From NCBI GenBank assembly GCA_902774305.1, contig CACYHY010000002.1:1-63410 (forward strand): a stretch of 63,410 nt of DNA, written 5' to 3'. The position numbers and the translations under genes were made by a program. This stretch comes from an uncultured Pseudomonadota bacterium. GTDB taxonomy: Bacteria; Pseudomonadota; Alphaproteobacteria; Rs-D84. Within the stretch, counting starts at the first letter, position 1, and each line of letters opens with the position of its first letter. Under the pieces are notes generated by a model that worked only from the letters and a program-made list of their open reading frames with translations, was not told the DNA's origin and ran no database searches. Below are positions 47,481-49,898 of this stretch, one piece after another.

Positions 47481-47489
47481 TGATATAAT
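47481..47489 (+). promoter_or_regulatory. extended -10 promoter element
   Basis: TGaTATAAT, upstream of the exported-protein pair. Confidence 0.45.
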
Positions 47490-47538
47490 ACCCATGTTAG
47501 TTGGGGGTATTTTGATTTATAAAAATTTAGTGATATGT

Positions 47539-48492
47539 ATGCGTTTGATATTAGCGGGATTAGTTTGTTCTGCGGTTGATTTTGACGCATATGCTGCTGA
47601 TAGCATTGGTTTGTCTGCTGCATTGCAAGGTGCACGCGAAGCGTGTTCAGGAATTTCCGAATCTATGTCTGGGATGAAAACGATGGCTGGTATAAATACT
47701 GCGGTGACCGGCGTTGGTACGGTAACTGGTGGTGTTGCATTGGGAACCAGTATTGCGAAAGCGAATACAGACGCCAAAATCGCAGAAACAGAACAGTTGC
47801 TGAAAGAATTGGAAGAATCAAATAAAGATGCCAAGGAACCGACCAAAGAAGAAGCTGAACAATTTTTAAAAGAATTTGAATTGTCTTATGAAGAAGCGTT
47901 GATTGATATTAAAAAAGAAAAAGAATCGTTAAGTGAAATGGAAAAGAAATCCAAAACATTAGGAAATATTAGAACTGGGACGATGGCGGCATCTGCGGTT
48001 TTGGATACAGCAGGAACAATTATCGCGTTGAATAATCGTACAGATGCAAGTTTAAAACAACGTGTGGATGGATGCATTGCTGCGGTCAATGTTTTGCACG
48101 ATGAACGTATGCGTGCCCGTGCCGAAAATACAGCAATTGAAAGAGATTTGGTTGCTGCTGAAAAAATTGTAAAAGAGTGTTCCGATTGGGAAAAAGTCGA
48201 TTTATCGTCCATAGATGATCGTGCAACAGGGGCTGCGATTTCCAGTGGTGCTGGGGCAGTAATGGGCATAGCCGGAACGATAACATCTGCATCGGCAAAT
48301 TCTGATTCTGTGCGCAGTAATAACAGCGAAGAAGGCAAAGCAAAAGAAAAGAATTTAAATACCGCATCAACTGTTTTGGCTGGTGGCACAACAGTTGCAT
48401 CCGCGGTTGCAACAGTGTTTAATGCAACACAAATAAGTGCGATAAAAAAAGCGGTTGCTGCGGCAGATAAATGCGAGGGGGCGCTGAGATAA
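47539..48492 (+). CDS. exported protein with glycine-zipper and coiled-coil segments (partner of the Tlde1-like protein)
   Basis: 317 aa from the ATG at 47539 (track start is TTG at 47470). Signal peptide MRLILAGLVCSAVDFDAYA. Gly/Ala/Thr-rich stretches alternate with a Lys/Glu coiled-coil. Stop overlaps the next ATG. Confidence 0.6.
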   Translation: MRLILAGLVCSAVDFDAYAADSIGLSAALQGAREACSGISESMSGMKTMAGINTAVTGVGTVTGGVALGTSIAKANTDAKIAETEQLLKELEESNKDAKEPTKEEAEQFLKEFELSYEEALIDIKKEKESLSEMEKKSKTLGNIRTGTMAASAVLDTAGTIIALNNRTDASLKQRVDGCIAAVNVLHDERMRARAENTAIERDLVAAEKIVKECSDWEKVDLSSIDDRATGAAISSGAGAVMGIAGTITSASANSDSVRSNNSEEGKAKEKNLNTASTVLAGGTTVASAVATVFNATQISAIKKAVAAADKCEGALR

Positions 48493-49898
48493 TGAAAAAA
48501 ATTATTTTTGTCTTGGCGTTGTCTTTTTTTACGGTGCCATGTATGGCAAATATTAAGTTTGATGGAAAAGTTGTTGGGGATATTATACGAAAGTATGTTC
48601 CAACAGAGAATGTATCAGCGGCTATAAAAAAATATAACGAAATAGTTAATGCGACGAATGATGGGACCGGGTTCCCTGCGCAAAAATTGTGGAATATATG
48701 CGATGCTGCAGGATGGAATGTAGAAGAATGGGATGGTAAACAAAAGTGCGAATATTTTGTACAGGCGTTATTGCGGGCCAGTTATTCGCAGTACTATGAT
48801 GTATGTGAGAAAAAAGGCAATTCGAAGGGTACAGAGAGATGTATAGAGGCATTTGAAGATATTCAGGTACAATTGGCTCAGGCGGAAAATTTGGCCCAAG
48901 AATATGCCAAGGTCAAATATAATGATGATATCAAATGTTCCAGCGCTATTCGTATATCTGGTAATGATGATTATATACAATGTACTTCGTATGATAAAAA
49001 GGTTTTTTATGAATTTCGGTTTGATGATGCACGAGAATCTAATTATTTAAAAAATGCATTTATTCGAAGAGAGTTTGGTAAGGGATTATGTATAATATAC
49101 GGTGGAAAGCTGAATAGTTTTGGAAGTGAATCTAAACTAAAGTTAGCGCAACTAGATAAGGTACCAGGGGTAGATATAAAAGATTTATCTTCGGGATGTA
49201 CAATAGCAAGATGTGATACATTGGGTACAAAGGTAAAAAAATGGGGCTATGTAACAAATAAGACAAATGATACATGTGTTGTTTCATATAAGGGTGTTGA
49301 TGATATACCTATGCATAGAAATTATGTTGCAAAATTTGATGGAAAAACGTTTGCTGTTTATTATGGAACCGAAAAAATTAAAAGTTGGCCCGCGGTTTCT
49401 GGACGCGGTAAAACATCACAAGATTCAAGACCTACAGTATGTCAAACACCAAAATATCAATCGTGTAACCATGTCGGACCAACACCAGCAGGAACATACT
49501 ATATTTCCCAAAATGAAATTGAATTTGCTGACAATATAGAGTCAGGTGATTTTGAACACAATAGCCCTAAATATTCAAAGAAGAATGCTCGAGGAAATAG
49601 AGGGGGCTGGGGAGATTTTCGTGTTCTCTTGGTACCAGATAAATCGACGAATACGTATGGTAGGAGTGGCATGTATATTCATGGTGGAAAGTGGAGAGGT
49701 AGTGCGGGGTGTATAGATTTAACAAGTAATGTAAATGATTTTATGAATTGGTTTAGTCAACAGACAGATTTTGTAAAGTTAAAAGTGATTGTTGATTATG
49801 GGCCTGTTTCTGGATTGTGTTGTACTGGAAAATCATGTAGCAGTGAATGTACATGCCCAACCGAGGCAAACGTGGAACAAGAATGTAAATATTTATAG
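48492..49898 (+). CDS. exported Cys-rich protein with C-terminal Tlde1/DUF2778-like (YkuD-fold) L,D-transpeptidase-type domain
   Basis: 468 aa from the ATG at 48492. Signal peptide MKKIIFVLALSFFTVPCMA. C-terminal WPAVSGRG...GPTPAGTYYI...GMYIHGGKWRGSAGCIDL (His...SxGC catalytic signature). Confidence 0.6.
   Translation: MKKIIFVLALSFFTVPCMANIKFDGKVVGDIIRKYVPTENVSAAIKKYNEIVNATNDGTGFPAQKLWNICDAAGWNVEEWDGKQKCEYFVQALLRASYSQYYDVCEKKGNSKGTERCIEAFEDIQVQLAQAENLAQEYAKVKYNDDIKCSSAIRISGNDDYIQCTSYDKKVFYEFRFDDARESNYLKNAFIRREFGKGLCIIYGGKLNSFGSESKLKLAQLDKVPGVDIKDLSSGCTIARCDTLGTKVKKWGYVTNKTNDTCVVSYKGVDDIPMHRNYVAKFDGKTFAVYYGTEKIKSWPAVSGRGKTSQDSRPTVCQTPKYQSCNHVGPTPAGTYYISQNEIEFADNIESGDFEHNSPKYSKKNARGNRGGWGDFRVLLVPDKSTNTYGRSGMYIHGGKWRGSAGCIDLTSNVNDFMNWFSQQTDFVKLKVIVDYGPVSGLCCTGKSCSSECTCPTEANVEQECKYL

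Follow-up and report, generated by a model that had tools for sequence, protein, structure and literature searches.

The DNA analysed here, called the window, is a stretch of 63,410 nucleotides (contig CACYHY010000002.1 of assembly GCA_902774305.1) from an uncultured alphaproteobacterium of the order Rs-D84, 'Candidatus Enterousia'. Between a dnaA-like gene (46189-47457) and a convergent gyrB-like gene, the window carries two coupled open reading frames, ORF1 and ORF2, which encode exported proteins (Table 1). Sequence, fold and catalytic residues all place the domain at the end of ORF2 in the Tlde1_dom family; Tlde1 enzymes are delivered by type VI secretion systems (T6SS). An earlier note, made from the letters of this DNA, had recognized the pair. 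What is mainly new relative to that note is the family setting: ORF1 and ORF2 make up one of many cassettes in a large polymorphic family, in which a constant first gene precedes interchangeable cargo genes.

The promoter element, both signal peptides, the stop/start overlap and the codons of the catalytic His and Cys are present where the earlier note had placed them. Chance alone would give 6.0 copies of the motif TGNTATAAT in the window; 13 are present, and the majority lie just 5' of gene starts, which makes the promoter call ahead of ORF1 reasonable for this genome. The copies, e.g., at 6424, 16969, 20820, 40309, 43935, 47481 and 51993 (reverse strand), mostly stand about 10-60 nucleotides before start codons. 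A sigma-70 scan omitted the element at 47481-47489, whose -35 is weak, and the twofold enrichment of TGNTATAAT suggests that promoters in this genome as a rule do not depend on a -35 element. One gene caller took an upstream ATG at 47494 as the start of ORF1; the alignment of homologues and the position of the promoter favour 47539. The GAGGGGG run in the last codons of ORF1 ends 10 nucleotides ahead of the ORF2 ATG and can act as its ribosome-binding site. Downstream, the 33 nucleotides that separate ORF2 from gyrB are occupied by the hairpin and T-run, and this gap has no space for an immunity gene. With a uniform GC content of about 0.37 along the window, the pair shows no compositional sign of recent import.

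Table 1. Features of the ORF1/ORF2 locus, in window coordinates (aa, amino acids; nt, nucleotides).
Feature	Positions	Strand	Basis
Extended -10 promoter-like element, TGATATAAT	47481-47489	+	Read directly, within the 81-nt dnaA-ORF1 gap
ORF1, exported all-helical partner, 317 aa	47539-48492	+	Sequence, homologue alignment
ORF1 signal peptide, aa 1-19, ...AYA|AD, signal-peptidase I type, no lipobox	47539-47595	+	Sequence, alignment
ORF1 small-residue segment 1, aa 47-75, nearly invariant AGINTAVTGVGTV core	47677-47763	+	Alignment
ORF1 variable Lys/Glu coiled-coil insert, aa 76-137	47764-47949	+	Alignment, composition
ORF1 small-residue segment 2, aa 138-166, SKTLGNxRTG... core	47950-48036	+	Alignment
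ORF1 small-residue segments 3 and 4, aa 229-256 and 273-309, with short charged linker	48223-48465	+	Alignment, model
Shine-Dalgarno-like GAGGGGG for ORF2	48475-48481	+	Within conserved ORF1 tail codons (..CEGAL..)
Stop/start overlap TAATG, translational coupling of ORF1 and ORF2	48490-48494	+	Sequence
ORF2, exported Cys-rich cargo protein, 468 aa	48492-49898	+	Sequence, homologues
ORF2 signal peptide, aa 1-19, ...CMA|NI	48492-48548	+	Sequence; Hessa sum -0.4 for hydrophobic core
ORF2 N-terminal family-specific domain, aa 20-275, conserved Cys, YEFxFDD motif	48549-49316	+	Alignment
Tlde1-type / YkuD-fold L,D-peptidase domain, aa 285-425	49344-49766	+	Pfam, Foldseek
Catalytic stretch R391...H397-G-G-x4-S404-A405-G406-C407	49662-49712	+	Alignment, Tlde1a spacing
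His397 codon; Cys407 codon	49680-49682; 49710-49712	+	Sequence
Cys-rich C-terminal tail, aa 440-468, six invariant Cys, ends C-x-Y-[IL]	49809-49895	+	Alignment
Hairpin CGCCCAATCGGGCG (stem-loop 49909-49922) and T-run, terminator common to ORF2 and convergent gyrB	49909-49933	.	

The identity of the C-terminal domain of ORF2, which the earlier note had described as Tlde1/YkuD-like, is carried by several lines of evidence. In Pfam, the YkuD model matched amino acids 285-425 with 36.5 bits (curated cutoff 23.4) and Tlde1_dom matched amino acids 318-425 with 35.7 bits (gathering cutoff 30.1). An AlphaFold2 model built on 15 homologues, with a predicted local distance difference test (pLDDT) score of 72.1, matched L,D-transpeptidases (Ldts) of the PDB in Foldseek with E values of 1e-5 to 1e-3 and a probability of about 1, including B. 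subtilis YkuD, LdtMt2, LdtMab2 and Ldtfm. Among the predicted viral structures of BFVD, the sole significant match was a phage 'Tlde1 domain-containing protein' (E 6e-4, TM 0.61). The residues R391, H397, S404, A405, G406 and C407 have a spacing identical to that of R115, H121, S128, H129, G130 and C131, the conserved and catalytic residues of Tlde1a (PMC9638812). The Arg/His/Ser/Gly/Cys set is invariant in 15 full-length homologues of ORF2, with position 405 as the exception, as well as in 16 Tlde1-type cassette partners and one MuF-fused relative. The closest relatives of the domain outside its own family (42-46% identity) are C-termini standing behind Phage_Mu_F, Rhs, eCIS-core (DUF4157), LysM and PG_binding_1 domains, the contexts of polymorphic toxins.

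The remainder of ORF2 is less easily placed. The earlier note had described about 330 Cys-rich amino acids that could not be assigned; the region does lack known relatives, and its length is about 280 amino acids. The N-domain gave no match in Pfam, PDB or BFVD, and a homology search with its alignment returned only two proteins. Sequence searches of the PDB with ORF2 and its family profile found nothing relevant, and Pfam showed no LysM or PG_binding match. The full-length homologues of ORF2 number about 15, at 42-70% identity, and the Cys-rich tail is specific to this ORF2-type class and was modelled with low confidence. Mature ORF2 contains 19 cysteines, a number that would fit nine disulfides plus a free catalytic Cys407.

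ORF1 has a different architecture. Its homologues share a hydrophobic N-terminus with an AxA end, followed by a conserved mature start. The Gly/Ala/Thr-rich stretches and the Lys/Glu coiled coil that the earlier note had read in ORF1 exist, and the stretches are four in number rather than three. These uncharged segments are nearly invariant, contain 52-75% Gly/Ala/Ser/Thr and alternate with helices of 40-50% charged residues; segment 1 has 62% Gly/Ala/Ser/Thr and 7% charged residues. The coiled-coil insert is 50% charged and is the least conserved region, with a length that varies from about 60 amino acids in the window ORF1 to 350-400 in some family members. In P0262, P0311, P0317, P0322 and P0331, proteins of 520-710 amino acids, it is the insert between segments 1 and 2 that has grown to this size. 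The alignment suggests that ORF1 may consist of a conserved four-segment base and an antiparallel stalk of variable length. Four cysteines (36, 179, 214 and 312) are invariant. The model of ORF1 is all-helical and of moderate confidence (pLDDT 63.9), and segments 3 and 4 are predicted to form a helical hairpin.

The segments of ORF1 are too polar for ordinary membrane helices, so that the protein should fully cross the inner membrane. Simple Hessa sums range from +3.7 to +5.7 kcal/mol (+4.6 for segment 1), compared with -0.4 for the ORF2 signal peptide and -0.2 for a hydrophobic stretch found in the long partners described below. A constitutive membrane protein was considered and is unlikely by simple hydrophobicity and by these sums.

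The breadth of the ORF1 family became apparent from database searches. Homologues exceed 1676 at 90% clustering, with about 50% identity, versus the roughly 15 full-length homologues of ORF2. An exhaustive profile search of 1.84 billion clusters at 50% identity recovered 440 of the ORF1 family, 359 of them at E<=1e-10, and species-representative genomes contained 288 copies; the family is lineage-restricted and multi-copy. Public records label both the ORF1 and the ORF2 family 'hypothetical protein', no Pfam or NCBIfam model exists for the ORF2 family, and PHROGs and PADLOC gave nothing useful. The gene neighbourhoods were surveyed for 89 ORF1 homologues in 85 sequences, including the best 80 loci fetched by ORF1 similarity. 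Among these 80 loci, no assembly had more than three ORF1 copies, and tandem copies were found at four loci. In 88 of the 89 copies the gene of a signal-peptide protein begins -4 to +1 nucleotides from the ORF1 stop, the remaining copy being at a contig end. The coupling in the window is the rule of the family, and ORF1 and ORF2 themselves are syntenic in every relative examined.

The proteins encoded behind ORF1 are highly diverse. They range from 165 to 1171 amino acids, are rich in Cys (median 2.8% versus 1.3% in other window proteins), and fall into 32 clusters at 60% mutual coverage or 15 components by any BLAST similarity. In a Pfam scan of the 89 partners the only real families were Tlde1_dom (16 members) and YkuD (5 members), and the Tlde1 domain was missing from 73. 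Where it occurs, it sits behind two different N-terminal regions. The ORF2-type region precedes it in the window and at L001, L002, L003/L004, L052 and L087, while at 11 loci an unrelated region of about 220 amino acids does so, with a His-to-Cys spacing of 13 instead of 10.

The ORF2 N-domain also begins 25 partners of about 1000-1170 amino acids. In the 20 of these that are complete, the first 600 or so amino acids form one homologous cluster with 31-45% identity; past a breakpoint the identity abruptly falls to 13-20%, and the last 250 amino acids form five unrelated clusters. A conserved N-body, a sharp breakpoint and alternative C-termini make up a polymorphic-toxin architecture. The partners of about 1000 amino acids (e.g., L050 6933-10445, amino acids ~465-510) contain a Gly/Ala/Val-rich hydrophobic stretch of about 45 residues with a Hessa sum of -0.2, which is predicted to insert into membranes. 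Their order of Cys-rich N-half, hydrophobic stretch, long helical region and variable end resembles, by analogy, the receptor/translocation/toxin order of colicin-like toxins. One ORF1-coupled partner of 881 amino acids with an ORF2-like N-domain (L083, 898-4735) has a C-terminus that is tentatively Tas1-like: its single PDB sequence match was Tas1, a type VI (p)ppApp-synthetase toxin of Pseudomonas, at E 0.0024, with YExWRVLDPKSPEA as a distinctive common motif. Further relatives of this end were sought for a profile and none was found. Downstream lie two small open reading frames and then, about 530 nucleotides away, a stand-alone HD_4 gene (E 4e-20); a Tas1-like end with such a RelA/SpoT-type hydrolase gene is a possible toxin-antidote arrangement. 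For the other long-partner C-termini no relatives were found, and they remain orphans.

A hypervariable, multi-copy repertoire of Cys-rich exported proteins, encoded by a reduced genome whose owner is predicted to depend on partners, could also be surface-exposed and serve attachment to a host or partner cell or antigenic variation, with the YkuD-fold domain covalently tethering the complex or other envelope proteins to the producer's own peptidoglycan. Ldts are able to tether Braun's lipoprotein covalently to peptidoglycan, the coiled coils of ORF1 are stalk-like and very variable in length, and most cargoes have no enzyme-like domain. A set of variable surface or adhesion proteins nevertheless seems distinctly improbable: the catalytic domain groups with Tlde1-type toxin ends and not with anchoring Ldts, one cargo end is tentatively similar to a toxin domain that acts in the cytoplasm, and toxin cassettes typically show such sharp breakpoints before their C-termini.

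The cassettes occupy recurrent positions among the relatives of the window, in a conserved backbone of TcpQ-secretin-rpsT-plsY-X-dprA-dnaA-gyrB/dnaJ. ORF2-type cassettes follow dnaA in the window, L087 and L003/L004, and follow the secretin gene in L001 and L002. Slots can also be empty, as after dnaA in L002 and after the secretin gene in the window, and the dnaA slot of L001 holds a different cassette. Where a cassette follows the secretin gene, it does so within about 140 nucleotides in L002 and L037 and within about 1.9 kb in L001. Of the 80 loci that ORF1 similarity alone had fetched, five have dnaA as a neighbour and one a secretin gene; the two linkages are thus both not general, and secretin linkage as a general feature was rejected on this count. 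In the window, the TcpQ-like and secretin gene pair lies at 40351-42872, roughly 2 kb upstream of dprA. The 63 kb contain no further genes of type II secretion or type IV pili, and the pair could be a minimal DNA-uptake or protein-export channel.

The identity of ORF1 tracks the class of its cargo (0.616 within classes and 0.491 between them, a difference reached by 0 of 1000 permutations), which indicates that cassettes are mostly inherited as units. Tandem ORF1 copies of 71-73% identity stand before unrelated cargoes. The window is an exception to inheritance as a unit: over its whole length, the window ORF1 is nearest to dnaA-slot ORF1s with unrelated cargo (L007 0.60, L006 0.56, L005 0.55) and reaches only 0.43-0.45 with ORF1s paired with ORF2-type cargo, while the window cargo resembles the secretin-slot cargoes of L001 and L002. 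The window cargo has thus apparently been swapped at the gene boundary, and the conserved ORF1 tail and the signal-peptide codons could supply the homology for recombination. No recombination breakpoint was found within the window ORF1. A phage origin of the cassettes was rejected: ORF1 was present on just two 'viral' contigs, beside a prophage end and a restriction-modification pair. On one of these (L092 545-7258, from IMG/VR), ORF1 and a 450-amino-acid partner lie just past a phage tail baseplate-hub gene and a PLD-nuclease/EcoRI-methylase pair, an accessory-island setting at a prophage end.

These comparisons bear directly on the suggestion of the earlier note that ORF1 could be an immunity partner. 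As a classical toxin-immunity pair, ORF1 would be the cognate periplasmic immunity protein of ORF2, placed upstream as Tldi1 is for Tlde1. The Salmonella immunity gene indeed lies upstream of Tlde1 and encodes a Sec signal peptide, ORF1 is exported and co-translated with ORF2, and no other immunity candidate was found. This explanation is very improbable and the suggestion did not hold. ORF1 appears to be a generic partner and not a Tlde1-specific immunity protein, because its family precedes 73 of 89 cargoes without a Tlde1 domain and because its conservation greatly exceeds that of the cargo. Immunity proteins show the reverse and diverge faster than their toxins. ORF1 is about 50% identical over all cargo classes, with nearly invariant segments, and the window copy is closer to ORF1s with unrelated cargo than to those with ORF2-type cargo. 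It also lacks DUF2195 and has 317 amino acids versus 138 for Tldi1.

The reading that we prefer is a Sec-dependent polymorphic effector cassette similar to MafA/MafB of Neisseria, in which ORF1 would be the translocator partner and ORF2 a Tlde1-type enzyme aimed at other bacteria; its chances of being right or wrong are about equal. Both proteins would be made together from one promoter and would cross the inner membrane by Sec. The cargo would fold with up to nine disulfides, leaving Cys407 free, and ORF1, judged by genetics alone, would act as its generic carrier, secretion factor or translocator, as MafA does for MafB. Beyond the periplasm, ORF2 would edit peptidoglycan in the manner of Tlde1, taking the terminal D-Ala off tetrapeptide stems or exchanging it, and its likeliest substrate would be the wall of neighbouring or partner bacteria. 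A wider proposal is tentative and somewhat unlikely to be right in full: the ORF1 family as a Sec-dependent two-gene system in which a glycine-zipper-like helical protein with a stalk moves interchangeable disulfide-rich cargoes into other cells, as the main interaction toolkit of these bacteria. Among the cargoes of such a system would be domains that elsewhere serve as type VI effectors, namely Tlde1 and possibly Tas1.

Several observations weigh against an effector cassette. The most serious concern immunity. Tlde1 directed to the periplasm of E. coli kills, and its usual companion is an immunity protein that is exported or sits in the membrane, yet ORF2 has to pass the periplasm of its own producer. 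No candidate immunity gene lies beside ORF2, where just 33 nucleotides lead to gyrB; no conserved co-oriented gene follows the Tlde1-type partners in 18 loci; and no downstream gene was found that co-varies with the long-partner C-termini. ORF1 matched no family model in Pfam or NCBIfam and has no sequence relative there (NCBIfam gave sub-threshold scores only, e.g., 16.9 bits against a cutoff of 125 for a mycoplasma two-transmembrane family), and its segments are not predicted as membrane helices. The ORF1 model found nothing among solved structures better than generic helical bundles at E 0.13. Weak Foldseek listings of alpha-pore-forming toxins, Umb and Tc toxins were set aside as not being evidence. 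Among the 89 partners, Tlde1 is the sole recognised enzyme domain, and the Tas1-like call depends on one weak single-sequence match. An N-terminal Cys...Cys module common to all partner superfamilies is weakly suggested at most: a hidden Markov model of classes a and b performed no better than reversed-sequence controls, and the hhalign probability of 96.6% with signal peptides became 31% (P 5e-4) without them. Finally, the second pocket His of Tlde1a, H129, is Ala405 in ORF2 and Ala, Ser, Gly or Lys in its homologues. The H129A variant of Tlde1a keeps D-amino-acid exchange, but most of its cross-linking is gone and its carboxypeptidase activity is partly lost (PMC9638812). Since exchange is retained in that variant, it is plausible that ORF2 is an active enzyme with a shifted activity profile.

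The absent immunity gene is the main weakness of a toxin reading and the main support for self-directed remodelling, in which periplasmic ORF2 would trim or cross-link the producer's own peptidoglycan like the cell-shape enzyme Csd6, with ORF1 as a periplasmic scaffold. Csd6 is itself a YkuD-fold L,D-carboxypeptidase fused to another domain, and the H129A variant that mimics Ala405 still exchanges (PMC9638812). ORF2 is Sec-exported, and peptidoglycan machinery is present both in the window (PBP2, M23 peptidase, SPOR protein) and in the lineage (RodA/MreB/MrdA). On the other side, a housekeeping function agrees poorly with about 15 full-length ORF2 homologues against more than 1600 for ORF1, with a cassette that changes slots which are sometimes empty, and with a Tlde1 domain in the polymorphic cargo position that unrelated ends share. 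The nearest relatives of the domain are polymorphic-toxin C-termini and not housekeeping Ldts, and no peptidoglycan-binding domain accompanies it. Self-directed remodelling is judged rather unlikely. The missing immunity gene has several possible explanations: the immunity gene may be unlinked; the producer's own wall may not serve as a substrate; the N-domain or ORF1 may hold the enzyme inactive until it is released; or ORF2 may be no toxin for the cell that makes it.

A different arrangement is seen in P0023 (L090 8001-9447), a protein of 367 amino acids from a gut alphaproteobacterium with no signal peptide and a weak Phage_Mu_F N-terminus. Its Tlde1 domain is the most similar to that of ORF2, and it is followed by a co-oriented gene for a multi-transmembrane protein of 108 amino acids, a candidate immunity gene of which no homologue was found in the window. 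A phage-lysozyme gene lies nearby, in a setting that is chromosomal and not that of a prophage.

The related loci come from rumen, gut and faeces. Enterousia genomes have about 0.75-1.0 Mb and are without respiration and many biosynthetic pathways, and the organisms were judged to be obligate symbionts or parasites that take metabolites from other cells; peptidoglycan is present and the cells are rod-shaped, with RodA/MreB/MrdA in the lineage (PMC12306168). The genes of the window, labelled through identical proteins on public contigs, are the housekeeping set of a diderm with peptidoglycan. Wall and envelope functions are represented by PBP2, a LysM-M23 peptidase, a SPOR protein, LptB/C, LolA, OmpA, Tat and an AsmA-like protein, and other genes include Suf, GatCAB, dprA, dnaA, gyrB, dnaJ, uvrC and CdaA. 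In agreement with the earlier note, which had seen no T6SS genes, no T6SS, type IV or type I secretion system genes were found among the Pfam-labelled genes that cover most of the window. A protein of 430 amino acids with a weak match to the Autotransporter beta-domain is encoded at 28264-29556 and adjoins an outer-membrane beta-barrel gene and the gene of a 516-amino-acid OmpA-domain protein; these add to the envelope or surface genes of a very small genome. At 43982-44676 lies the gene of an exported protein whose tail is glycine-zipper-like. This gene is intact with 267 amino acids on a same-species public contig (L085); a 109-nucleotide deletion divides the window copy into two open reading frames of 152 and 86 amino acids, so that it is either a strain-level pseudogene or an assembly variant.

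Tlde1-type enzymes have so far been met as type VI cargo or as Rhs and MuF toxin ends with dedicated immunity genes. Here the same module is Sec-exported, as the earlier note had proposed, fused to an N-domain and coupled to a constant part, ORF1, that are both without known relatives, and no immunity gene is visible. On the preferred reading this would be a polymorphic effector system with a Tlde1 payload and with a previously undescribed trafficking partner and architecture. If ORF1 is a carrier or translocator, the cassettes would provide a new minimal route to deploy antibacterial or cell-interaction effectors, and the first molecular handle on how Rs-D84/Enterousia interact with the cells on which they supposedly depend. 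Rumen and gut harbour these bacteria in abundance; they are uncultured, with genomes below 1 Mb. The question is also raised how a producer tolerates a periplasm-toxic enzyme in transit through its own periplasm. Should ORF2 be a housekeeping wall-trimmer, the finding would be more modest; the polymorphic family of ORF1 partners would still be undescribed and a sizeable investment for a small genome.

Among known systems, the Tlde1 effectors (Tae5/DUF2778, PF10908), e.g., Salmonella Tlde1a (PDB 7UMA), are the reference for the enzymatic domain. They share with ORF2 the Tlde1_dom match, the YkuD-like fold, the R-6, H, S+7, G+9, C+10 spacing, the upstream SG and GPxPxGxY motifs and, by analogy, the expected action on peptidoglycan stem peptides in a periplasm. 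In contrast to the T6SS-delivered Tlde1, ORF2 carries its own Sec signal peptide, has its domain between a Cys-rich domain of about 260 amino acids and a Cys-knot tail, shows Ala in place of H129 and shares a two-gene cassette with the gene of a helical partner; neither a T6SS nor an immunity gene of the Tldi type is in view. The MuF-, Rhs-, eCIS (DUF4157)- and LysM-fused Tlde1 proteins, such as P0023, have domains 42-46% identical to that of ORF2, with the 10-residue His-to-Cys spacing, and like ORF2 they use the domain as an exchangeable C-terminal module. P0023 differs in its MuF-like N-terminus, its candidate immunity gene and the lack of both a signal peptide and an ORF1-like partner.

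Helicobacter Csd6 and the canonical YkuD Ldts (LdtMt2, YcbB, B. subtilis YkuD) resemble ORF2 in being Sec-exported, in their YkuD fold with catalytic His/Cys, in their fused accessory domains and in needing no immunity protein. ORF2 departs from the canonical Ldts in having SAGCID instead of (S/T)HGC-h-R, in lacking LysM, PG_binding and NTF2 domains, and in being patchy and cassette-borne where those enzymes are conserved in core genomes. With polymorphic toxin systems (sensu Zhang et al. 2012) the cassettes share a conserved N-region, a sharp breakpoint and unrelated C-termini; the ends are Tlde1-type in 16 of 89, tentatively Tas1-like in one (E 0.0024) and orphan in all others. Unlike those systems, the cassettes have no co-varying downstream immunity gene, the sole suggestive case being the HD_4 gene after the L083 end.

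The Maf system of Neisseria offers the nearest parallel for the two genes together. MafA is an upstream, non-beta-barrel, oligomeric outer-membrane partner that is needed for the outward movement of the Sec-exported polymorphic toxin MafB; it recognises the conserved MafB N-domain, and some MafB proteins accept any MafA (PMC7738311). ORF1 and ORF2 differ in that neither ORF1 nor the ORF2 N-domain has a MafA or DUF1020 match in Pfam, that ORF1 is all-helical and is not a lipoprotein (AxA end, no lipobox), that no MafI-like gene follows ORF2, and that the cargo N-domains belong to several unrelated superfamilies. As in MafA/MafB/MafI, a conserved exported upstream partner that is not a predicted beta-barrel precedes a Sec-exported protein with a conserved N-domain and a variable C-terminus, several cassettes occur per genome, and partner specificity is partly relaxed. 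Although ORF1 and ORF2 are not members of the Maf family, MafA/MafB would, by analogy, be their closest functional counterpart.

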